A DNA stretch of 18,805 bases from a virus, in the UHGV virus genome UHGV-0261633. One strand, written 5' to 3'. Below, piece by piece: positions 1,701-12,086 of this stretch (position 1 is the stretch's first letter; every line of letters starts with the position of its first letter). The notes beneath the pieces were generated by a model that did no database searches, was not told the DNA's origin, and was given only the letters and a program-made list of their open reading frames with translations. The position numbers and the translations under genes are program-made.

Positions 1701-1717
1701 GAGAGAGAGAGAGAGAG
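1701..1717. repeat. (GA)8 dinucleotide microsatellite
   Basis: gagagagagagagagag read directly, just outside the tRNA-Cys 3' end. Confidence 0.9.
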
Positions 1718-1727
1718 TAAAATAACT

Positions 1728-1803
1728 TGGAGAATCCGAAGGGACTCGAACCCTTATAAACCTGTTTTGCAGACAGGCACATAGCCATTTCTGTCACGGA
1801 TTC
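1728..1803 (-). tRNA. tRNA-Cys (anticodon GCA)
   Basis: Hand fold: encoded CCA (tgg on + at 1728-1730), acceptor gaatccg/cggattc perfect, T-arm aaggg-actcgaa-ccctt, anticodon loop in tRNA sense CUGCAAA. Confidence 0.8.
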
Positions 1804-1807
1804 AAAT

Positions 1808-1900
1808 TGGAGGAAGATACCAGACTTGAACTGGTACACCGATTTCTCAGCTACTGGCAGTTTAGCAAACTGCTCCCTTACCTTTTAGGGTTAATCTTCC
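1808..1900 (-). tRNA. tRNA-Ser (anticodon GCU), type II
   Basis: Encoded CCA, acceptor ggaagat/atcttcc perfect, T-arm accag-acttgaa-ctggt, long variable arm, anticodon stem gcagt/actgc with loop UUGCUAA. Confidence 0.8.
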
Positions 1901-1902
1901 AT

Positions 1903-2637
1903 TTATTTCTGTAATGCGTTCTTCATTTCTGGTGTTGCAATAGTGTCAATTACACCAGTTTTACAAGCATCATCAAACCAGTCTGGTAAGATACCTGCTA
2001 AGAACCCATTGATATTCGTTTTAAGGTACTCTGCAATAAGGGCAGCTTCTTCTTCAATCATCTGCACAACTTCATCTGCATAAGCTGTAATCTTCGAGAT
2101 ACCTTCATTAATCTTACTAACAGCTTGGTTAGCTAAATCAGAAATAGTATCAAGACCTTTGTCAATAGCGTCTTGTAAGTCACTTAATACATCATTAACA
2201 CCGTCTAGTGCACTGTTAATCATATCAATAGCTTTTTGACCATACTCTGTAGCAACACCCATAATACCACTAAATGGTGTACAGCCAACTTGTTCACCTG
2301 CTGCACCCATAACATTAGAATAACCTTTTGCTACCTGCATACGTGATGAAAACTCATCAATGGACTTTTGACCGTAATCTGTCAGTGTTTTGGTAGTTGA
2401 TGTAGTGCTTGTCAGACTCGTGGTAAAGCTGTTAAGCAGAACTGTTGTAAGTCCAGCAGCAACAAGCTTATCCTTTACTGTAGGGTCTGATACAGAACTA
2501 ATAGAGCTTACAAGTGATGTAGAGGCAGCTACGGTTCCACCGAGAACTGCTGCACCAGTAATAAGGGGGTTAGAAAACCCTTTACCAGTTTTTAAGAGAT
2601 TAAAAATCTCCTTACCTTGTTCTGTCATCTCTTTCAT
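1903..2637 (-). CDS. hypothetical Ser/Thr-rich protein (~244 aa) embedded in the tRNA array
   Basis: ORF track 1903..2700, but the first 21 codons overlap tRNA-Phe and begin at a non-ATG codon; internal ATG at 2635-2637 has an AAGGTG RBS. Low-complexity S/T/A-rich N-terminal half. Confidence 0.55.
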   Translation of the reverse strand: MKEMTEQGKEIFNLLKTGKGFSNPLITGAAVLGGTVAASTSLVSSISSVSDPTVKDKLVAAGLTTVLLNSFTTSLTSTTSTTKTLTDYGQKSIDEFSSRMQVAKGYSNVMGAAGEQVGCTPFSGIMGVATEYGQKAIDMINSALDGVNDVLSDLQDAIDKGLDTISDLANQAVSKINEGISKITAYADEVVQMIEEEAALIAEYLKTNINGFLAGILPDWFDDACKTGVIDTIATPEMKNALQK

Positions 2638-2653
2638 TAAGCACCTTTGAAAT

Positions 2654-2730
2654 TGGTAGTCCAGTGGGATTTGAACCCTCTTCTCATGTTTTTCAGACAC
2701 GCGCTTTAACCATATAAGCTACTTGGACTA
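2654..2730 (-). tRNA. tRNA-Phe (anticodon GAA)
   Basis: Acceptor tagtcca/tggacta perfect, T-loop atttgaa (one mismatch in T-stem), anticodon loop CUGAAAA; 3' CCA encoding ambiguous. Confidence 0.7.
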
Positions 2731-2735
2731 TAAAT

Positions 2736-2811
2736 TGGGGTGACCTACGGGATTTGAACCCGTATAGACCATGTTCACAGCATGGGTCATTACCATTTAT
2801 GATAAGGCCAC
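2736..2811 (-). tRNA. tRNA-His (anticodon GUG)
   Basis: Encoded CCA, acceptor with one G-U, T-arm acggg-atttgaa-cccgt, anticodon stem ccatg/catgg with loop CUGUGAA. Confidence 0.8.
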
Positions 2812-2842
2812 ATTTAAGGACTCTCGTAAGAATCCTTAGAAG

Positions 2843-2918
2843 TGGCAGCGGCATAAGGATTTGAACCTTAATAAGACAGCTTCAGAGACTGCTGCATTGC
2901 CAGTTATGCTATACCGCT
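2843..2918 (-). tRNA. tRNA-Gln (anticodon CUG)
   Basis: Encoded CCA, T-arm taagg-atttgaa-cctta, D-arm gcat-tgccagtt-atgc, anticodon loop CUCUGAA. Confidence 0.75.
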
Positions 2919-2923
2919 AAATT

Positions 2924-3002
2924 TGGTACTCCATATCGGATTCGAACCGATACATAACACAGATTTTAAGTCTGGCCTCTCTGCCAATTGGAGTAATGGA
3001 GC
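2924..3002 (-). tRNA. tRNA with leucine anticodon UAA but type-I length (putative tRNA-Leu)
   Basis: Encoded CCA, discriminator A, acceptor actccat/atggagc (terminal G-U), T-arm atcgg-attcgaa-ccgat, anticodon loop CUUAAAA; about 7-nt variable loop, no long arm. Confidence 0.55.
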
Positions 3003-3004
3003 AT

Positions 3005-3080
3005 TGGCGGGGGATGTTGGAATTGAACCAACTTCTTCGATTTCAAAGACCGAGGTTTTAACCTTGTAAACTAATCCCCT
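3005..3080 (-). tRNA. tRNA-Gln (anticodon UUG)
   Basis: Encoded CCA, T-arm gttgg-aattgaa-ccaac, anticodon loop CUUUGAA. Confidence 0.75.
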
Positions 3081-3088
3081 TTAAATCT

Positions 3089-3646
3089 TTACTTTCTCAG
3101 TGGATGAATAAAGAATGCCAACATAACTCTTTCCCTTGAGAATGCTCTTTCTTCTGGGACAACACTTTTTAGCTTCCATCCAACATAAATTCTCCAGTAG
3201 AATTGTTTACCAAAGACTTTAATTGATGGGATAAAAGCGAATAATCCCCAAGCATTACTGTTCCACATTAGGAGATAACCTGTCTGATTATCTTCAGGGT
3301 CAGAACTTACGTTGATATTGCCTTTCCACTTAGTAACATCTTTTACATCTCTTCCTAACACATGGTAAGAGAAGTTATAAGCTTTGTTTCTCCAGAGCCA
3401 TCCAACTCTCTGCAAATAGACACCAAGCTTACCAATCTTTCTAATCTTAGCCCATCTTTTAACGTGACCTTCATCACCATCAATCGGGTTGTCATATGTC
3501 TCCATCCATCTGAATCCAAAAGGTAAGTGTCCTTTCTTCTCACTGTAAAATGGAACTACAAAAGGTGCTAAGATAACTGCTAAGATTGCTGCCAATGGTT
3601 CTAGCAAAGCTAAGAAAATCCATGAAGCATACTTCAAGTATCTCAT
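3089..3646 (-). CDS. hypothetical membrane protein (185 aa) embedded in the tRNA array
   Basis: ORF track; AGAGG RBS about 9 nt upstream; hydrophobic N-terminal segment IFLALLEPLAAILAVILAPFVVPF, Trp-rich remainder. Confidence 0.6.
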   Translation of the reverse strand: MRYLKYASWIFLALLEPLAAILAVILAPFVVPFYSEKKGHLPFGFRWMETYDNPIDGDEGHVKRWAKIRKIGKLGVYLQRVGWLWRNKAYNFSYHVLGRDVKDVTKWKGNINVSSDPEDNQTGYLLMWNSNAWGLFAFIPSIKVFGKQFYWRIYVGWKLKSVVPEERAFSRERVMLAFFIHPLRK

Positions 3647-3665
3647 TTAAATAGCCTCTTTAAAT

Positions 3666-3741
3666 TGGCGCAGGATAAGGGATTCGAACCCCTATTAACA
3701 GCTTCGTAGACTGTTGCTCTATCCATTTGAACTAATCCTGC
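3666..3741 (-). tRNA. tRNA-Arg (anticodon ACG)
   Basis: Encoded CCA, acceptor gcaggat/atcctgc perfect, T-arm aaggg-attcgaa-cccct, anticodon loop CUACGAA. Confidence 0.8.
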
Positions 3742-3855
3742 TTACCTACAAGAACACCATACAGTTTTTCACAAGAGTTGTTTTTACGCCTGTTTTTGAA
3801 TGACGCTATAAACTTTTTTGCAATTGATTTATTACTCATAGTGTTCTCCTAAAAT

Positions 3856-3933
3856 TGGTGTTCCAAGACGGATTCGAACCGTCACTAGTACAAGGTTTGA
3901 GCTTGCATCCTCTGCCAATTGGGATACTGGAAC
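3856..3933 (-). tRNA. tRNA with leucine anticodon CAA but type-I length (putative tRNA-Leu)
   Basis: Reverse complement GUUCCAG-UA-UCC..GGA-U-GCAAG-CUCAAAC-CUUGU-ACUAGU-GACGG-UUCGAAU-CCGUC-UUGGAAC-A-CCA; 6-nt variable loop, discriminator A. Confidence 0.55.
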
Positions 3934-3934
3934 A

Positions 3935-4009
3935 TGGTACTCACTAAAGGACTTGAACCTTTTTCTTCATCTTGTAAGGGTGATGTTTTACCATATAAAC
4001 TAAGCGAGT
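3935..4009 (-). tRNA. tRNA-Val (anticodon UAC)
   Basis: Encoded CCA, T-arm aaagg-acttgaa-ccttt, anticodon loop CUUACAA. Confidence 0.75.
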
Positions 4010-4011
4010 AT

Positions 4012-4102
4012 GAAAGAGGTCTGAAGTTGTGCCGCTAACTCAACTCCGTGGGATTTGTTACGGTCTTCAGTTGACTCAAAGCGGTCTTTCACTTGACCTC
4101 TA
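4012..4102 (-). ncRNA. tRNA-sized structured element without a canonical T-loop (possible tRNA-like RNA or degenerate tRNA)
   Basis: Outer stem agaggt (4015-4020) / acctct (4096-4101), inner stem ctgaag (4021-4026) / cttcag (4065-4070), internal hairpin ccgt..acgg (4046-4063); no GTTCGAAUC motif in either orientation. Strand not determined from sequence. Confidence 0.3.
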
Positions 4103-4105
4103 AAT

Positions 4106-4181
4106 TGGTGCTCCCACAAGGATTCGAACCCTGATAAGTTACTTACAAGGCAACCGTAATAGCCAATTATACGATAGGAGC
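4106..4181 (-). tRNA. tRNA-Thr (anticodon UGU)
   Basis: Reverse complement GCUCCUA-UC-GUAU-AAUUGGCUA-UUAC-G-GUUGC-CUUGUAA-GUAAC-..-CAGGG-UUCGAAU-CCUUG-UGGGAGC-A-CCA. Confidence 0.8.
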
Positions 4182-4188
4182 ATTAATT

Positions 4189-4263
4189 TGGAGCATCCAG
4201 AGGGAATCGAACCCTCAACCTCAGTTTGGAAGACTGTAATTTTCCCGTTTAAACTATGGATGC
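4189..4263 (-). tRNA. tRNA-Gly (anticodon UCC)
   Basis: Encoded CCA, acceptor gcatcca/tggatgc perfect, T-arm gaggg-aatcgaa-ccctc, anticodon loop CUUCCAA. Confidence 0.8.
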
Positions 4264-4269
4264 ACTAAT

Positions 4270-4345
4270 TGGTGGAGTCACCGAGAATTGAACTCGGTTC
4301 CCAAGTTTGCAAAACTCGAATTTTAACCATATAAACTATGACCCC
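4270..4345 (-). tRNA. tRNA-Ala (anticodon UGC)
   Basis: Encoded CCA, T-arm ccgag-aattgaa-ctcgg, anticodon loop UUUGCAA. Confidence 0.8.
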
Positions 4346-4351
4346 ATTGTT

Positions 4352-4427
4352 TGGTACAGGTGGAGGGAATTGAACCCATCGTCTTACTGATTAAGAGTCA
4401 GCCGCATAACCATTTTGCTACACCTGC
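4352..4427 (-). tRNA. tRNA-Lys (anticodon CUU)
   Basis: Encoded CCA, acceptor with terminal G-U, T-loop aattgaa (T-stem only 3 clean pairs), anticodon loop CUCUUAA; paralogous in outline to the tRNA at 5656-5731. Confidence 0.7.
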
Positions 4428-4434
4428 ATTAATT

Positions 4435-4512
4435 TGGTAGGAGACAAGGGATTCGAACCCTCAAACACCAACTTCTAAGGATGGTAGGTTTACCAATTAC
4501 CGTCAATCTCCC
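4435..4512 (-). tRNA. tRNA with leucine anticodon UAG but type-I length (putative tRNA-Leu)
   Basis: Encoded CCA, discriminator A, acceptor 7 pairs with two G-U, T-arm aaggg-attcgaa-ccctc, anticodon stem CCAUC/GUUGG (one mismatch) with loop CUUAGAA; D-arm poorly paired. Confidence 0.5.
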
Positions 4513-4593
4513 ATTAAATCTTTTTAGAGAACTTCTAAGAACCTAAGCAACAAGGTTCCACAACAAGCTGTAATAACCTTAGAAGCCCTCTAA

Positions 4594-4613
4594 AAAGACC
4601 TAAATAGGTCTTT
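4594..4613. other. AT-rich hairpin in array spacer (weak terminator-like)
   Basis: aaagacc-taaata-ggtcttt flanked by A/T runs; orientation and function unclear. Confidence 0.25.
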
Positions 4614-4767
4614 GCATAGTCTTGTTTAATCCGGTGACTAGAACCTTTGGAGAGCTTGATATTATCTCTTCTCCGTGACACCTACTAGGTGCTTTGACAG
4701 TGTACGACAATACACGAGGGATACCAAAGCAACATCCAAATGAAGCTTGGCTTTAAATCTTATTAGG

Positions 4768-4855
4768 CGGTAAGTAAAGGAGTCGAACCCTCACCGTATC
4801 TCTACAGTGGCAACTGTTTTCAAGACAGTTTGGCTACCATTAGCCGCTACCTACC
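4768..4855 (-). tRNA. tRNA-Ser (anticodon UGA), type II
   Basis: T-arm aaagg-agtcgaa-ccctc, ~20-nt variable region, anticodon stem actgt/acagt with loop CUUGAAA, acceptor ggtaagt/acctacc with one G-U; CCA apparently not encoded. Confidence 0.65.
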
Positions 4856-4868
4856 CCTAATAAGACTT

Positions 4869-4951
4869 TGGCATGGGACGGAGGAGTTGAACCCCTTTGA
4901 AACGGTTTTGGAGGCCGTTGCTCATGCCTTAGAGTCTTAACATCGTCCCAT
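4869..4951 (-). tRNA. tRNA-Trp (anticodon CCA)
   Basis: Encoded CCA, acceptor atgggac/gtcccat perfect, T-arm ggagg-agttgaa-cccct, anticodon loop CUCCAAA; D-region longer than canonical. Confidence 0.6.
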
Positions 4952-5093
4952 ATTATAATTCGAAGCTTACCCTGTTATCTCAACACTGTCAAGCTTCTTC
5001 TCAGATTATTTACATGTTCTGGAAAACATGAGATACAGACCACCTCCCTACAGGAAGACCCGCTAAGGCCGTCTAAGTAATCTGCTAACTATT

Positions 5094-5175
5094 TGGTCGA
5101 GGCGGCAGGACTCGAACCCGCATACTCCACTTACTCGGTTAACGGCGGTTTAGAAGACCGCTGAGATACGCCCCG
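5094..5175 (-). tRNA. tRNA-Arg-like (anticodon UCU) with non-canonical body
   Basis: Encoded CCA, acceptor cgaggcg/cgccccg, T-arm gcagg-actcgaa-cccgc, perfect anticodon arm GCGGU-CUUCUAA-ACCGC; but only 7 nt between acceptor and anticodon stem (no room for a D-arm) and 23 nt between anticodon and T arms. Confidence 0.45.
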
Positions 5176-5423
5176 TAATTATCTTTAAAGACTCTCTTAG
5201 AAAGCCCTTAAAGATGCCCACCTTATTAATCATACCGTGGGCGAGTACGCCAAATTCTTTAATGAGGGATTGGAAGACCTCACTGGTGTTTAGCCTATCA
5301 AGCTACTGCCAGAAAAACATTGTCGTTTGCATTTATTTTAAATTTGCAAAATAGACGCTACGCAACGAAAACTAAGGTTACTATAAAGTAGTCACATCTC
5401 AATGTCAACAACTTTATTGAAAT

Positions 5424-5498
5424 TGGTTGTAGGTGAGGGTATCGAACCCTCTTCTAACGGTTATCAGCCGTTTGCATTACCATTTATGCTAACCCACA
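5424..5498 (-). tRNA. tRNA-Ile (anticodon GAU)
   Basis: Encoded CCA, T-arm gaggg-tatcgaa-ccctc, D-arm gcat-taccattt-atgc, anticodon stem aacgg/ccgtt with loop CUGAUAA. Confidence 0.8.
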
Positions 5499-5500
5499 AT

Positions 5501-5577
5501 TGGAGGTTCAGATGGGAATCGAACCCACATTCATAGGGCTTATGAAACCCCTGCATTACCTTATCTGCGACTGAACC
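5501..5577 (-). tRNA. tRNA-Met (anticodon CAU), elongator-like acceptor
   Basis: Encoded CCA, acceptor ggttcag/ctgaacc perfect, T-arm atggg-aatcgaa-cccac, anticodon stem GGGGU/GCCCU with loop UUCAUAA. Confidence 0.7.
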
Positions 5578-5655
5578 AGAATAAGTACCCTAGTTAGAGA
5601 AACTGTTGAGTGGGTGTTTCCAGCCGCGCAGGTGTTTCTCAGTTAAGGGTGAATT

Positions 5656-5731
5656 TGGTAGAAGTGGAGGGATTCGAACCCATCGCCTGTCAGATTAAAA
5701 GTCTGCCGCATCACCATTCTGCTACACTTCC
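5656..5731 (-). tRNA. tRNA-Lys (anticodon UUU)
   Basis: Encoded CCA, acceptor with terminal G-U, T-loop attcgaa, anticodon loop CUUUUAA. Confidence 0.7.
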
Positions 5732-5736
5732 ATTAA

Positions 5737-5876
5737 ATTATCTTTGTAGATAAGCTACCCAGACTTGCTTAAGGTCTGTAGCGATGTGCCTTTTGGGTTT
5801 AAATCTAGAATTTACCCTTCACCCTTTGTGGTCGCATACTCACAGGTAAGCTTAATAACTTATCTACAAAGATAAT
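5737..5876. repeat. 18-bp perfect inverted repeat flanking a 104-bp ORF-free segment
   Basis: attatctttgtagataag (5737-5754) is the exact reverse complement of cttatctacaaagataat (5859-5876). Confidence 0.85.
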
Positions 5877-5920
5877 TACCAGACCGTTGTTTATCATCTT
5901 AAGTGCTACCATTACACCAA

Positions 5921-5975
5921 CTCGACATCTGCCGAGTGAAGGAATCGAACCTTCGCCTTTTCTTTACCGGAGAAA
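5921..5975 (-). other. tRNA fragment-like element (canonical T-arm plus one hairpin, no matching acceptor 5' strand)
   Basis: T-arm gaagg-aatcgaa-ccttc (5938-5954) and hairpin tttct-ttaccgg-agaaa (5958-5974); no complementary acceptor strand found downstream. Confidence 0.3.
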
Positions 5976-5990
5976 TAGATTGTTTAAGTT

Positions 5991-6018
5991 TTGCTGTAAA
6001 CGGTCTTCTGTAAATTTG
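5991..6018. repeat. 28-bp exact direct repeat, copy 1 (ttgctgtaaacggtcttctgtaaatttg)
   Basis: Identical 28-mer at 6471-6498; degenerate copies at about 6078-6097 and 6638-6658. Confidence 0.85.
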
Positions 6019-6130
6019 TTGAGCCAGACCAAGTTTTAAATTTTCAAAATTAAATTGGCTTGAAATTTCATACATTCTTGCTGTATTTGGTCTTCTGCTC
6101 CTTTAAAGAATACTCGTAAGAACTCTTTAA

Positions 6131-6153
6131 GGGAGGGGCTAAATAGCCCTCTC
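6131..6153. other. GC-rich hairpin gggaggggct-aaat-agccctctc
   Basis: Shares the 15-mer ggggctaaatagccc with a hairpin at 18364-18378. Confidence 0.5.
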
Positions 6154-6158
6154 AAAAT

Positions 6159-6235
6159 TGGCGGCTACGATGAGACTTGAACTCACATCATCTCCCGTGA
6201 CAGGGGAGTATTTTCTCCAGTTAAACTACATAGCC
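6159..6235 (-). tRNA. tRNA-Asp (anticodon GUC)
   Basis: Encoded CCA, T-arm atgag-acttgaa-ctcac, anticodon stem ctccc/gggag perfect with loop CUGUCAC. Confidence 0.8.
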
Positions 6236-6240
6236 TTTAT

Positions 6241-6328
6241 TGGTGTGCCGTGTAGGAGTCGAACCTACCGAGTCTCAATGACAAGGGATTTACAGTCCCC
6301 ACCGCTACCATCTACGGGATAACGACAC
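6241..6328 (-). tRNA. tRNA-Tyr (anticodon GUA), type II
   Basis: Encoded CCA, T-arm gtagg-agtcgaa-cctac, ~15-nt variable region, anticodon loop CUGUAAA. Confidence 0.75.
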
Positions 6329-6336
6329 ATTTAATT

Positions 6337-6413
6337 TGGCGGTTAGTCAGGGATTCGAACCCTGTGCCATTCGCTTAACAGGCGACCGCACATACCTTAT
6401 GTGCTTCCTAACC
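6337..6413 (-). tRNA. tRNA-Asn (anticodon GUU)
   Basis: Encoded CCA, T-arm caggg-attcgaa-ccctg, D-arm gcac-ataccttat-gtgc, anticodon loop CUGUUAA. Confidence 0.75.
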
Positions 6414-6470
6414 ATGTTTAGTATTACCAGACCGTATCTTTCAATTTTTCCGCTAAAAATTTAATAAGTA

Positions 6471-6498
6471 TTGCTGTAAACGGTCTTCTGTAAATTTG
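6471..6498. repeat. 28-bp exact direct repeat, copy 2, abutting the 3' end of a tRNA-Met gene
   Basis: Identical to 5991-6018. Confidence 0.85.
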
Positions 6499-6573
6499 GA
6501 GGCGGGTGCAGGAGTCGAACCTGCCGATACCATGCTAATGAGACATGTGAGACGCCCTTTCTCTATACCCGCA
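6497..6573 (-). tRNA. tRNA-Met (anticodon CAU), possibly initiator-type or tRNA-Ile2
   Basis: Encoded CCA, T-arm gcagg-agtcgaa-cctgc perfect, anticodon stem CAUGU/GCAUG with loop CUCAUUA, D-arm gaga-cgccctt-tctc; position 1-72 appears unpaired. Confidence 0.65.
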
Positions 6574-6664
6574 ATTCTTAATGACCAGACCAAATCTCTT
6601 CTTTGTCCGATTTACCTTCAGATGAATAAGATTAAGTTTGCTGTAATTGGTCTTCTGTCAAAAC

Positions 6665-6742
6665 TGGCGTTCCAGAAGGGATTTGAACCCTCAAATATCC
6701 ACTTTGAAAGAGTGGTGACTTTACCATTTTGTCTACTGGAAC
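6665..6742 (-). tRNA. tRNA-Glu (anticodon UUC)
   Basis: Encoded CCA, acceptor gttccag/ctggaac perfect, T-arm aaggg-atttgaa-ccctc, anticodon stem ccact/agtgg with loop CUUUCAA. Confidence 0.8.
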
Positions 6743-6749
6743 ATTAATT

Positions 6750-6826
6750 TGGTCTCTGTTGGAGGACTTGAACCTCCGGCCTTACCGCCCCAAACGGAAC
6801 GCTCTACCAAGCTGAGCTAAACAGAG
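6750..6826 (-). tRNA. tRNA-Pro (anticodon UGG)
   Basis: Encoded CCA, acceptor ctctgtt/aacagag perfect, T-arm ggagg-acttgaa-cctcc, D-arm gctc-taccaagct-gagc, anticodon loop UUUGGGG. Confidence 0.8.
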
Positions 6827-6991: not shown

Positions 6992-8407
6992 TTACCAGAT
7001 ATAACGGTCAATCATTACTGCTTTGAGCATTACGCTGATTGGGTCAAACTTCTCACCACTAAGCAGAGCTTTTAAAGTGGCTGGAGAGAAACCAGATACC
7101 ATTGCTACACCGTTATCCTTAACAGATACTTCGCAAGTACCATTACGGTTTGCTAAGTACCAGAATACCAGTTGTGGCATCTCATATCCAGCTTTTTTGT
7201 ACTTACTCTGAATTGCTTCAAAGTTTGTACGACCGTTAGCTCCATCAACCTGATTGAACTCCATATCGGAGAAGATGATAAGCTTACTTGGCATATCTTT
7301 CTGAGTCAAGTTGTTTCTTTTACCTGTTTCAAGAATGCGGTCAAAAGCTGCTTGTAAGTTAGTTGAGCCATATTCAACGTGTCGCATCACCTGACGATGA
7401 CGGTTTCGTAAATCACCACTCAGTTCGATGAAGTGAGGGTTTGTCGAATAAACCATCAACTCATTCTTAAAGCAACCTGTATTGCGTTCTGCTACATACA
7501 AGGCAAGTGATACACCAATATCCAGAGCAGTAATGGAGCCAAAATTCACCCAAGACATTGAACTTGATACATCAGACATACACAAGATGTTTTCACCTTC
7601 TGCCATCCAGTTTGGTAGTGCTTTCCACTGCTCATTAGCAACATCTGCATTACCATACTTGACAGATTTAATCACATCGTATGGGTAAACAGCACCAGCG
7701 TTAATCTTAGTCTCACCTTTTGATAAGGACTCGATGTAAGCTTTGTAACGCTCTCCATCTTTACGGTTAAACAGTTTTTGGTAACGTGCAGCAGCAAGTG
7801 AAGGAATCTTACTGTAGTCAATCTTACCAAACTCATTAGCAGAGATTTTTTGCTCAACTGTATCAGATAGTGCAGACAACAGTGTGCGGTACTCTTTCTC
7901 ACTCAAGTTGGCAAACTTGCAGAAACGTTTTACAAACTGCTTATGACGTGGTTTGACTCGTGGTAACCACTTAGCCGCCAAACCTGCTGTTGCAGGGTCT
8001 AGTAATGCTGCTTCTAAATGTTTGAAGGCATCTGTCTCGAAACGAGTACCTACGAAGATTTTGAAGTCATCAAAACGACCAAGTTCTGCAATCTTATCCA
8101 TAATGCGAAGAACCTGTGTAGGCTCTAAAACTTTATCTTCAATTGCTTGAAGCAAAACAGTTCTGAAGGCTTTACGCTCACCCATACCTTCTCGTACATC
8201 TCGCATATGCAGTAAAATACGAACTGCAACATCAACATCCTCACGCAAAGCTTTGTAGAACAGGTCTGGTAAGATTTCTACATTGCTACGGCTTGAACCA
8301 GCAGCTTTGTAAAAGTCTACAAGAGCAGACATTGATGAAGTATGGTTTACAGCACCATTTTCAGTTCGACCTGCATGAAGGTGCGCATGTTTAAATAATT
8401 CGCTCAT
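6992..8407 (-). CDS. von Willebrand factor A (vWA/MIDAS) domain protein, 471 aa, with ~270-aa helical N-terminal domain
   Basis: ORF track; C-terminal half has a DxSxS MIDAS motif (ILCMSDVSSSMS) and a vWA-like hhhhSD motif (KLIIFSDMEFNQ); GAGAG RBS. Domain call is from motif recognition only. Confidence 0.8.
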   Translation of the reverse strand: MSELFKHAHLHAGRTENGAVNHTSSMSALVDFYKAAGSSRSNVEILPDLFYKALREDVDVAVRILLHMRDVREGMGERKAFRTVLLQAIEDKVLEPTQVLRIMDKIAELGRFDDFKIFVGTRFETDAFKHLEAALLDPATAGLAAKWLPRVKPRHKQFVKRFCKFANLSEKEYRTLLSALSDTVEQKISANEFGKIDYSKIPSLAAARYQKLFNRKDGERYKAYIESLSKGETKINAGAVYPYDVIKSVKYGNADVANEQWKALPNWMAEGENILCMSDVSSSMSWVNFGSITALDIGVSLALYVAERNTGCFKNELMVYSTNPHFIELSGDLRNRHRQVMRHVEYGSTNLQAAFDRILETGKRNNLTQKDMPSKLIIFSDMEFNQVDGANGRTNFEAIQSKYKKAGYEMPQLVFWYLANRNGTCEVSVKDNGVAMVSGFSPATLKALLSGEKFDPISVMLKAVMIDRYIW

Positions 8408-10117: not shown

Positions 10118-10489
10118 ATGAAAGCTAAGAGTGCAAAAGACTTTTATTGCTTCCTACAATCCTATATCAATTCCGTGCAAAATGGTGAAAGGTACAACCT
10201 TAATGATGTTATCCCAACACCTTTGACATGGAGACTCAGTAAATGGCCTGAAGAAGATATTACACCAACAAGCGAACAGCGTACCTACAAACCTGAAATT
10301 AATATTCCAGACTCTGAGAATCTATTATACCCAATGTTCCATATTGTTGGTCTTGGAAGATTCCTTATGGATATCCAGTATGTAATTGGTAAAGGTTATA
10401 AGGTTAAAGATATTGTCGTTGGTGATGTATCTCCGAATCACAAAGGTTATTTTAGACTAAACGCACATTTAGAGGCTGAAAAGAAATGA
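10118..10489 (+). CDS. hypothetical protein (123 aa), paralogous to the N-terminal domain of the next gene
   Basis: ORF track; shares an aligned pattern with the next ORF (YPDFKEF../KDFYCF.., GxRYx, W..PE.DI, YKP.., FxMDxQY). Confidence 0.7.
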   Translation: MKAKSAKDFYCFLQSYINSVQNGERYNLNDVIPTPLTWRLSKWPEEDITPTSEQRTYKPEINIPDSENLLYPMFHIVGLGRFLMDIQYVIGKGYKVKDIVVGDVSPNHKGYFRLNAHLEAEKK

Positions 10490-11622
10490 TTAAAGCAAAG
10501 ACTTACCCAGACTTCAAAGAGTTTGTGAAGGGCTTCATTGCAAACGTAAAGGCTGGTAAGAGATATGATTTTAGAACATATCAAGAGGCTATTTTACCAC
10601 TTACCTATAGCTCGTATTGGCCTGAAGCTGATATTGCAGAAGTTGAGAAGTTTGACTATAAACCAGACTACAAAGTTCCATTTAGTGATGAGTTGCTTTA
10701 CAGTGTTGGTGCTCAAATGAGAACTTCTGACTTCTTCATGGACTTACAATATGCAATTATCAATGGTAAAGACGTTGATACAGTTTATTGTGAATGGCTG
10801 GCAAGAGTTAAACCATTCTCAATGTTGAATGCTAAGTTGAAGGACGCTATCAAGCCACCATCAATCACTCAGCAACCAACCAATCAAACAGTAAATGAAG
10901 GTGGTACACTTACCCTAAGCGTTATTGCAACTAATGCCACTGGATATCAATGGAAAAAGGATGGTGAGGATATCACTAGCGCCACATCTGCAACTTACAC
11001 AAAACAGTCAGTAGCACCTTCTGACGCTGGTTCATATACTTGTGTTGTATCTGGGGAGGGTGGGACAAGTGTCACATCAGATGCAGCAACAGTTACTGTG
11101 AATGCCTTACCAGTGATTACCAAGCAACCTTCTAACCAGACCGTTAATGAAGGTGGAAACATCAGCTTAGCAGTTACTGCAACAGGTGCAACTGGTTACC
11201 AATGGAAGAAAGATGGTTCCGACATCCCTTCAGCTACAAAGGCCACATATAGCAAATCTGGTGCACTTCCAGCAGATGCTGGCTCATACACTTGCGTTGT
11301 AACAGGTGCTGGAGGTTCGGTTACTTCTAACCCTGCAACTATCACAGTAAACGCACTACCAGTTATTACTCAGCAACCAACAAATCAAGAAATCACAGAA
11401 GGTGAAACCTTGACACTAAGTGTTGTAGCTACTGGTGCAACAGGCTATCAGTGGAAGAAAGATAACGTAAACATTCCTAGTGCAACTGCTGCAACTTACA
11501 CCAAAGAAAGTGCAACGAGTGCAGATGATGCAGGAAGCTACACTTGTGTAGTAACTGGCGCAGGTGGTTCGGTAACATCTAATGCGGCAACAGTTACAGT
11601 TAATCCAGCAGGAGGTGAATAA
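10486..11622 (+). CDS. protein with paralogous N-terminal domain plus three tandem Ig-like domains (378 aa)
   Basis: ORF track; three ~82-aa repeats each with QPxNQxVxEGxxLxL..ATGYQWKKDG...AGSYTCVV.GAGGSVTS..ATVTVN, a typical Ig-like (I-set-type) signature. Confidence 0.85.
   Translation: MIKAKTYPDFKEFVKGFIANVKAGKRYDFRTYQEAILPLTYSSYWPEADIAEVEKFDYKPDYKVPFSDELLYSVGAQMRTSDFFMDLQYAIINGKDVDTVYCEWLARVKPFSMLNAKLKDAIKPPSITQQPTNQTVNEGGTLTLSVIATNATGYQWKKDGEDITSATSATYTKQSVAPSDAGSYTCVVSGEGGTSVTSDAATVTVNALPVITKQPSNQTVNEGGNISLAVTATGATGYQWKKDGSDIPSATKATYSKSGALPADAGSYTCVVTGAGGSVTSNPATITVNALPVITQQPTNQEITEGETLTLSVVATGATGYQWKKDNVNIPSATAATYTKESATSADDAGSYTCVVTGAGGSVTSNAATVTVNPAGGE
10861..11598 (+). repeat. three tandem ~246-bp coding repeats (Ig-like domain units)
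   Basis: Approximate unit boundaries 10861/11107/11353, read from the protein repeats. Confidence 0.8.
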
Positions 11623-12086
11623 TGCAACTCTCAAGGAAAGGTTTAGAAGCCATTAAGTTCTTTGAAGGTCTTAAGTTAGAGGCTTACGAAGACTCTGCCG
11701 GAATCCCAACAATCGGGTATGGTACAATCCGTATTGACGGGAAACCTGTTAAGATGGGTATGAAAATCACTGCCGAGCAAGCTGAACAGTATCTTCTCGC
11801 GGATGTTGAGAAGTTTGTTGCAGCAGTGAACAAAGCTATCAAGGTTCCAACTACTCAGAATGAGTTCGATGCACTTGTAAGTGAAACATACAACATCGGT
11901 ATCACAGCTATGCAGGATTCCACATTTATCAAGCGCCACAATGCTGGTAATAAGGTAGGTTGTGCAGAAGCTATGCAGTGGTGGAACAAGATTACAGTCA
12001 AAGGTAAGAAGGTAACTTCAAACGGCTTGAAAAATAGACGTAGAATGGAAGCTGACATTTATCTTGACAGTGTATATCCAAAGTAA
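11622..12086 (+). CDS. endolysin, T4-type lysozyme (glycoside hydrolase family 24)
   Basis: ORF track; N-terminal FFEGLKLEAYEDSAGIPTIGYGT matches the GH24 catalytic Glu/Asp/Thr region; GGAGG RBS; strong terminator follows. Confidence 0.9.
   Translation: MQLSRKGLEAIKFFEGLKLEAYEDSAGIPTIGYGTIRIDGKPVKMGMKITAEQAEQYLLADVEKFVAAVNKAIKVPTTQNEFDALVSETYNIGITAMQDSTFIKRHNAGNKVGCAEAMQWWNKITVKGKKVTSNGLKNRRRMEADIYLDSVYPK

Follow-up and report, generated by a model that had tools for sequence, protein, structure and literature searches.

The stretch of DNA analyzed here (the window, 18 805 nucleotides (nt) of UHGV virus genome UHGV-0261633) carries two protein-coding open reading frames (ORFs), here called ORF A and ORF B, inside a large array of tRNA genes. 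The window belongs to a Felixounavirus, and the 5.5-kb stretch around both ORFs is 95–97% identical to more than 140 FelixO1-like myoviruses, FelixO1 included. As the original prediction had it, each ORF is flanked on both sides by tRNAs of its own strand: the ORFs and the tRNA genes called by ARAGORN all lie on the minus strand, and the spacers between the ORFs and their neighbors measure 2–19 nt. The array, the ORFs and the tRNAs around them are laid out as follows.

1728–6826, minus strand: tRNA array with 25 tRNA genes called by ARAGORN and one found only with Rfam; both ORFs lie inside it
3666–3741, minus strand: tRNA-Arg(acg), directly upstream of ORF B, 19 nt from its ATG (ARAGORN, Rfam)
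3655–3660, minus strand: Shine-Dalgarno sequence AAGAGG of ORF B, 8 nt upstream of the ATG, in the spacer after tRNA-Arg
3089–3646, minus strand: ORF B, 185 amino acids; ortholog of FelixO1 gp48/ORF48; Pfam DUF7338, phrog_2143; one predicted N-terminal transmembrane helix and a basic alpha/beta domain
3005–3080, minus strand: tRNA-Gln(ttg), 8 nt past the ORF B stop codon (ARAGORN, Rfam)
2654–2729, minus strand: tRNA-Phe(gaa), directly upstream of ORF A, 16 nt from its ATG (ARAGORN, Rfam)
2638–2700, minus strand: 5' extension of ORF A from a GTG at 2700, judged spurious and non-coding; overlaps the 3' part of tRNA-Phe
2642–2648, minus strand: Shine-Dalgarno-like AAAGGTG of ORF A, 4 nt upstream of the ATG, directly after the CCA-ATTTC that ends tRNA-Phe
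1903–2637, minus strand: ORF A, 244 amino acids; ortholog of FelixO1 gp49/ORF49; Pfam DUF7217, phrog_2114; acidic, serine/threonine-rich, predicted all-helical bundle
1808–1900, minus strand: tRNA-Ser(gct), 2 nt past the ORF A stop codon (ARAGORN, Rfam)
1728–1803, minus strand: tRNA-Cys, the last tRNA of the array, after tRNA-Ser(gct)

Homology searches place both proteins in curated Pfam families and identify them as the orthologs of FelixO1 gp49 and gp48; both ORFs are conserved in the related arrays. ORF A falls into DUF7217 (PF23854) with 297.8 bits against a gathering threshold of 29 bits (E = 8.6e-89; residues 8–243 on positions 2–238 of the 238-position model) and matches phrog_2114 (E = 1.6e-111). 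ORF B falls into DUF7338 (PF24027) with 210 bits against a threshold of 27 bits (E = 2.8e-62; residues 1–184 on positions 1–176 of 180) and matches phrog_2143 (E = 3.2e-81). Among 20–24 Felix-like relatives, variable sites at codon positions 1, 2 and 3 number 46, 21 and 141 in ORF A and 43, 13 and 118 in ORF B, and the ratio of nonsynonymous to synonymous substitution rates (dN/dS) is 0.07–0.11 and 0.03–0.08, respectively. The FelixO1 genome paper lists ORF48 and ORF49 at the same lengths, and both were positive in reverse transcription PCR (RT-PCR) (PMC3185647). Both ORFs are real genes of the phage, conserved and under strong purifying selection. That they might instead be non-functional frames, kept by chance or by hitch-hiking between conserved tRNA genes, has nothing for it beyond the missing functional assignment of both proteins. 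It has to contend with dN/dS values of 0.03–0.11, membership of both in large Pfam families, homologs at 27–60% identity in other phage families away from tRNAs, and the RT-PCR signal for both in FelixO1. We assign this explanation almost no probability, since the evidence from selection and homology already refutes it.

The start codon of ORF A needed correction. With the GTG at 2700 as its start, the frame would encode a 265-residue form and overlap tRNA-Phe; the original prediction had favored the internal ATG at 2637, and the comparison with relatives agrees with it. Besides the Shine-Dalgarno-like sequence in front of this ATG, SUSP-like relatives (L027, 86% identity) have a 1-nt indel that puts stop codons into the upstream frame while the Shine-Dalgarno sequence and the ATG are retained. 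In Erwinia phage Prophecy and in Dickeya phage JA15 (Ackermannviridae), the homologs align from Met 2637 onwards, and their own upstream sequences are unrelated; the annotated extension of the Prophecy homolog overlaps another tRNA (Ser) and has no sequence relationship to the ORF A extension. The Pfam DUF7217 match begins at residue 8 of the short form, and the FelixO1 RefSeq start for gp49 is the same short-form ATG. These data support ATG 2637 as the true start and show the GTG-2700 extension to be an artefact. Several GenBank records of relatives, pinkbiff among them, keep the long GTG start that overlaps tRNA-Phe, and the gp49 ortholog is therefore wrongly delimited in many database records of this phage group.

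The layout of the locus bears on how the two genes are expressed. Two features of the array are of particular relevance:

5380–5408, minus strand: sigma-70-type promoter TTGACA-17-TATAGT with 11 of 12 consensus matches, in the array just downstream of tRNA-Ile; equals FelixO1 P45
1534–1557, minus strand: terminator-like hairpin (GACGG-loop-CCGTC followed by six T), after tRNA-Cys and before a 66-residue ORF and the large-terminase gene

A sequence scan found no promoter-like or terminator-like site in the spacers between the ORFs and the adjoining tRNAs, and no promoter-like site within ~100 nt upstream of either start codon; the promoter scan gave no more hits in total than expected from shuffled sequence, so cryptic sites may be missed. 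Spacers of 2–19 nt leave no room for separate promoters. The best promoter match of the region is 5408–5380, and more promoter-like sites lie upstream of the first tRNA (6973–6945 and 6882–6853, minus strand). At the other end, the hairpin at 1557–1534 keeps its stem and varies in its loop in 21 of 24 Felix-like loci, which makes it a candidate for the 3' end of the tRNA/ORF transcription unit. Between tRNA-Cys and this hairpin we also noticed a (CT)9 dinucleotide run (~1701–1718, minus strand) directly after the tRNA, and a promoter-like site (1638–1610) between the run and the hairpin.

Expression data from FelixO1 are informative here. By RT-PCR, FelixO1 ORFs 45, 46, 48 and 49 peak at 5 min after infection, while ORFs 41, 42 and 44, which lie upstream of P45, reach their maximum at 25 min, as does the terminase ORF 52 (PMC3185647). 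The four early ORFs are exactly the FelixO1 ORFs downstream of P45. This timing and the position of P45 fit one early transcript over the distal array and both ORFs; a literature search found no Felixounavirus transcriptome. Together, the single strand, the short spacers, the lack of an intervening terminator, P45 and the shared 5-min class strongly, if indirectly, imply that the ORFs are co-transcribed with the tRNAs, as originally proposed, and both are probably expressed early from the tRNA transcript. The ORFs could alternatively be transcribed apart from the tRNAs, via promoters hidden in the upstream tRNA genes or in the ORFs themselves, in which case the tRNA neighborhood would be irrelevant. 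Weak minus-strand promoter-like matches (9 of 12) do exist at 4983–4955, 2288–2261 and 2219–2191, and the shuffled-level yield of the scan leaves space for cryptic sites. Yet the two matches within ORF A are past its start codon, no candidate falls within the ~100 nt before either start, the 16- and 19-nt spacers are taken up by the tRNA trailer and the Shine-Dalgarno sequence, and ORFs 45, 46, 48 and 49 share one timing class. We therefore consider separate transcription very improbable.

Most tRNAs of the array have their CCA encoded, with an A/U-rich trailer of the form A(A)TT(A/T) behind it. In Escherichia coli, RNase E cuts sequences of this A/U-rich kind during tRNA maturation. From the way in which RNase P and RNase E mature tRNA precursors, it is reasonable to infer that the mRNAs would be released by tRNA processing. 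In the mechanism that we propose, host RNA polymerase would start at sigma-70-type promoters before and within the array, including 5408–5380 (P45), where the early transcript with ORF B and ORF A probably begins, and would read through tRNAs and ORFs up to the conserved hairpin and T-run at ~1557–1534. Each ORF could be translated from the precursor by means of its own Shine-Dalgarno sequence, placed right after the CCA-ATTT end of the preceding tRNA. RNase P would then cleave where the next tRNA begins, and cuts of the RNase E type in the A/U-rich trailers would part the tRNAs from the mRNAs. The resulting mRNAs would have 3' untranslated regions of just 2 and 8 nt, so they would presumably be short-lived and give a short pulse of early expression. 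The single transcript and its processing by nucleases are deduced here rather than observed. On balance, we think it fairly probable that the two genes, the conserved gp49 and gp48 orthologs, lack promoters of their own and depend on an early tRNA operon for their expression.

ORF A encodes a protein of 25.6 kDa with an isoelectric point (pI) of 4.4. Serine and threonine make up 19.3% of its residues, and 18 of the 40 residues (45%) at positions 41–80, which agrees with the serine/threonine-rich protein that had been expected from the translation. The AlphaFold model is an elongated all-helical bundle with a mean predicted local distance difference test (pLDDT) score of 93.6; C119 and C225 are invariant in the family alignment. 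Sequence and profile searches of the PDB returned only coiled-coil noise, and for ORF A, searches of NCBIfam and PADLOC yielded nothing but ZorA coiled-coil matches below threshold. A match of its C-terminal half to phrog_289 ('GTP-binding domain') and a weak match to an Acinetobacter phage were followed and offered no functional lead, and a literature search found no papers on DUF7217 or DUF7338.

An indication of a role for ORF A comes from its distant homologs. In Ackermannviridae, the DUF7217 gene stands between the major capsid gene and gp3 and has no tRNA within 5 kb; in Prophecy, it stands between the last tRNA and the terminase gene and so borders the array without being inside it. The Ackermannviridae homolog matches LIMEstone1 ORF129 in position and mass, the JA15 homolog having 25.08 kDa. 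LIMEstone1 ORF129 is a 25.03-kDa 'unknown structural protein' that was found in virions by electrospray ionization tandem mass spectrometry (ESI-MS/MS), and all 12 LIMEstone1 structural proteins without known function are reported to have a structural counterpart in phage ViI (PMC3296691). ORF A is thus probably an elongated, acidic helical-bundle protein that is a minor component associated with the virion, an assignment that we make with lower confidence. It may instead be an early intracellular or membrane-associated helical protein, for instance one acting in host membrane remodeling or takeover, whose proximity to packaging genes is incidental. The 5-min peak of the FelixO1 transcript and the description 'putative membrane protein' in several records speak for this, and gp49 is missing from the whole-phage shotgun list of FelixO1 virions (PMC3185647). 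The Ackermannviridae homolog, however, lies in a structural module and was detected in LIMEstone1 virions (PMC3296691), and ORF A has only one marginal hydrophobic window (Kyte-Doolittle 1.62). A non-virion role is possible and in our judgment the less probable one.

ORF B, by comparison, has the character of a membrane protein, as the original prediction had stated. Its pI is 9.9, and its single strongly hydrophobic segment (residues 9–33; Kyte-Doolittle maximum of 2.44 over 19 residues) is modeled as one long helix. The AlphaFold model (pLDDT 94.4) consists of an N-terminal helix (residues 2–33), several short helices and a five-stranded sheet; this predicted fold is confident and has no known relative. 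Past the transmembrane helix, the DUF7338 alignment contains invariant polar motifs (T50, D52, N53, G57, W83, W85, R86, N87, Y90, R152, G156, W157 and K158), conserved in ORF B as TxDNxxxGD, WLWRNxxY and GWKLK. The family comprises 889 clusters at 50% identity, nearly all of single-domain proteins of 160–200 residues and mainly from phages or viral contigs.

The ortholog of ORF B in phage Mushroom is annotated as 'holin', a label also found in GEC_vB_B1, vB_CbrM_HP1 and Yersinia phage P8 and by now widely copied; the paper accompanying phage Mushroom names a class III holin. If the label were right, ORF B would be the phage's class III holin, similar to T4 T (one transmembrane domain, N-terminus inside and C-terminus outside, large periplasmic domain), and would form the lesion that releases a soluble endolysin. 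The architecture of one transmembrane domain and a large extramembrane C-terminal domain suits this, as do the database annotations; FelixO1-like phages have no other experimentally shown holin, and distant homologs occur in lysis cassettes. The sequence comparisons do not agree: hhalign of the DUF7338 alignment against T4 T gave a probability of 0.1% (E = 0.55), a Pfam scan of ORF B returned DUF7338 only, and no structural similarity of its C-terminal domain to the solved T periplasmic domain was detectable. T4-like phages with DUF7338 (Matisse, phiKp_1 and ALF_ER54) also encode T in the same genome, and in L072 and L073 the DUF7338 gene adjoins canonical holins (GTA_holin_3TM, Phage_holin_4_1). 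The FelixO1 ORF48 transcript peaks at 5 min and not late, and the invariant polar motifs are more reminiscent of a binding or catalytic site than of a holin. We conclude that homology gives no support to the 'holin' label of the gp48 ortholog, that co-occurrence with true holins contradicts it, and that ORF B is unlikely to be the holin.

A connection to lysis or to the cell envelope is nevertheless suggested by the distant DUF7338 lineages. In about 6 of 14, the gene lies within three genes of an endolysin, and these endolysins belong to three families (Phage_lysozyme, GH19-like and GH108); in two further lineages it stands beside tail-fiber or tailspike genes. All-against-all BLAST of the flanking ORFs found no neighbor family common to these lineages, and only a functional class, that of lysis genes, recurs. 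With lower confidence, we suggest that ORF B is a factor anchored in the inner membrane that assists in envelope or lysis functions and is not the holin itself.

Several points weigh against the reading of an early tRNA operon and the roles proposed with it. ORF B lies ~8 kb from the endolysin of the window (11622–12086) and on the opposite strand. Neither a virion protein (ORF A) nor a lysis factor (ORF B) would be expected to be expressed early, and neither ORF product has a fold relative of known function. The early RT-PCR class of FelixO1 also holds structural genes, such as the major capsid gene 58 (PMC3185647), so the timing data are coarse. For ORF A, the virion detection of LIMEstone1 ORF129 is based on 2 peptides (PMC3296691), and what has been published on FelixO1 is of little help. 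There, a 51-kDa major virion band was assigned to 'gp49' and speculated to be the sheath, while Table S1 of the same paper gives ORF49 as 244 amino acids and ORF63 (450 amino acids) as 'major structural protein' (PMC3185647). A 51-kDa band is at odds with the 25.6-kDa ORF49 product and fits ORF63, and we therefore set the structural claim for 'Gp49' aside as unreliable. Either a numbering slip or a dimer stable in sodium dodecyl sulfate could account for it; a numbering error that reached the abstract of the FelixO1 paper is the likely explanation.

ORF B, without ORF A, also recurs among tRNAs beyond the genus. Among 78 viral loci, all DUF7338 genes at least 56% identical to ORF B but one have a same-strand tRNA within 1.1 kb upstream, while a same-strand tRNA within 10 kb is absent from every homolog of 42% identity or below. 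The sole exception is L042 (10001–10542, in a 121-kb T4-like contig), with no tRNA within 10 kb; its DUF7338 gene is split into ORFs of 101 and 61 residues, apparently disrupted and possibly decaying. At least five settings, spanning three groups of myoviruses, have the DUF7338 gene between tRNAs, with different tRNA neighbors each time:

Window, Felixounavirus: tRNA-Arg(acg) upstream of the DUF7338 gene, tRNA-Gln(ttg) downstream
L032, Moogle-like: tRNA-Asp upstream, tRNA-Ser(tga) downstream
L033, phage Av-05 (121 kb): tRNA-Gly upstream, tRNA-Gln(ttg) downstream
L048–L051, PG7-like Karamvirus: tRNA-Phe upstream, tRNA-Met downstream
L052, S13-like: tRNA-Met upstream, tRNA-Lys downstream

Between the window and the Av-05, Moogle-like, PG7-like and S13-like loci, nucleotide homology ends at the ORF B boundaries. 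Transfer of ORF B in a block with its tRNAs is ruled out, as the homology does not extend beyond the ORF and the tRNAs on its flanks are different; the gene itself, and not a tRNA block, is the unit that moved. The association with tRNA arrays may reflect recombination at the repeated trailers, selection for tRNA-operon expression, or both. A bolder proposal is that DUF7338 is a single-gene cassette that has settled repeatedly within tRNA arrays, or immediately behind them, in enterobacterial myoviruses unrelated to one another (Ounavirinae, Avunavirus phage Av-05 and, among the Straboviridae, several genera). It would use the short CCA-A/T-rich trailers as recombination sites and borrow the early transcription and nuclease processing of the tRNA operon in place of a promoter and terminator of its own. 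Its product would be a new kind of membrane-anchored factor of the envelope or of lysis timing, and in more distant phages this factor would be part of the lysis cassette. We put this proposal forward as speculative and rather unlikely in its full form.

The junction upstream of ORF B also varies within the genus. In the relatives L014, L015, L016, L018, L022, L025, L026, L028 and L029, the first tRNA upstream of ORF B is ~257 nt away and not 20 nt; about one-third of the Felix-like loci share this layout, with a different leader (...CTCCTTACGAGGATTAGACA then ATG). This spacing and leader mark the junction as an indel hotspot. In the window itself, a 35-residue basic ORF (MSNKSIAKKF..., 3732–3839, minus strand) with a strong AGGAG Shine-Dalgarno sequence stands directly after tRNA-Leu(caa) and overlaps tRNA-Arg by its final 10 nt. 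Relatives keep this ORF intact, at 83–91% identity, and it may be coding; the segment is wholly absent from Mushroom, where ORF B directly follows tRNA-Leu. Further upstream, just after tRNA-Asp, the trailer ATTTTGAGAGGGCTATTTAG (6139–6158, minus strand) is nearly identical to the ORF B leader of some relatives, for example L021, which has ATTTTGAGAGGCTATTTAG then ATG; in the window no ORF stands behind it. ORF B directly follows tRNA-Asp in the Moogle-like L032, and the window trailer may be the scar of an earlier ORF B position.

Turning to the rest of the array, Rfam at its gathering score confirmed 23 of the 25 ARAGORN tRNAs and added one at 5097–5175, for a total of about 26. The added tRNA (minus strand, 31.7 bits) was missed by ARAGORN, and pinkbiff has a tRNA-Arg annotated at the equivalent place. 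The two ARAGORN calls below the gathering score are tRNA-Tyr (6241–6328) and tRNA-Met (6497–6573), both on the minus strand; the FelixO1 paper terms its Tyr and His tRNAs 'pseudo' (PMC3185647). In the 427-nt gap between tRNA-Asp and tRNA-Lys(ttt), at ~5900–5960 on the minus strand, a T-arm-like GGTTCGATTCC and an acceptor-like end are immediately followed by a D-arm-like GTTGGTGTAATGGTAGCAC. This element looks like tRNA fragments or a rearranged tRNA and was called by neither ARAGORN nor Rfam.

Outside the array, two genes lie upstream on the same strand, one for a 123-residue DUF5681 protein and one for a 471-residue DUF2828/DUF7788 protein, and downstream the 66-residue ORF is followed by the large-terminase gene, which was placed by synteny of relatives. 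The 471-residue gene (6992–8407, minus strand), just upstream of the array beyond a hairpin, matches phrog_850 ('RNA-binding protein'). Its DUF2828 and DUF7788 pair resembles Ro60, with a TROVE-like domain followed by a vWA-like domain, and its place beside a 26-tRNA operon raises the question of binding to tRNA-like RNAs; Rfam gave no match to a Y-RNA-like family within the window. Transcription of the window's other half is divergent; the endolysin (Phage_lysozyme, 154 residues) lies there, immediately preceded by a 378-residue protein with three immunoglobulin-like domains (10486–12086 for the pair, plus strand). No holin-like gene adjoins the endolysin, in keeping with reports that lysis genes are scattered in FelixO1-like phages.

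For this genus, neither the arrangement nor the two genes are new, as all were annotated and published with the FelixO1 genome in 2010, and it is commonplace for phage tRNA arrays to contain protein genes. Mildly new are the recurrent, gene-sized link of one DUF7338 subfamily to tRNA arrays and the weakness of the 'holin' label. The size of DUF7338, its confident fold without a relative and its dual genomic habit, with tRNA arrays in one subfamily and lysis cassettes in others, make it reasonable to test what the protein does by simple genetics.

The closest known counterparts are FelixO1 ORF48 (NP_944875, 'membrane protein') and ORF49 (NP_944879), which have the same tRNA neighbors and the same lengths of 185 and 244 amino acids (Whichard et al. 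2010; PMC3185647). Nothing essential differs, except that the window is without the HNH endonuclease genes that FelixO1 carries elsewhere in its array. The DUF7217 proteins of LIMEstone1 (ORF129) and JA15 ('unknown structural protein') share with ORF A the length (242–244 amino acids), the acidic, serine/threonine-rich composition and two aligned invariant cysteines, whereas their identity to ORF A is 27–29% and their genes lie in the capsid/tail module with no tRNA within 5 kb. T4 holin T (Phage_holin_T) resembles ORF B in its short N-terminus, single transmembrane helix and C-terminal domain of ~150 residues; ORF B differs in having no detectable relationship to T in sequence or structure, coexisting with T and being reported as early rather than late.

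Two other systems combine protein genes with tRNA genes. T4 segB and the FelixO1 HNH ORFs 44, 45 and 47 are also protein genes among same-strand tRNA genes of a lytic phage, and, like such homing endonucleases of tRNA clusters, the ORF B cassette moves between arrays as a single gene. Searches of Pfam, PHROGs and NCBIfam found no HNH or GIY-YIG nuclease domain in either ORF, and, unlike the endonucleases, ORF A appears to be a helical-bundle protein and ORF B a membrane protein. In E. coli, the thrU-tyrU-glyT-thrT-tufB operon is a mixed tRNA-mRNA operon in which the mRNA is cut from the tRNA precursor by tRNA-processing nucleases. The model proposed here is the same, with an mRNA inside a tRNA precursor. 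In contrast to the tufB operon, ORF A and ORF B stand mid-array, with 3' spacers of 2 and 8 nt, so that both ends of each mRNA would be set by tRNA processing.

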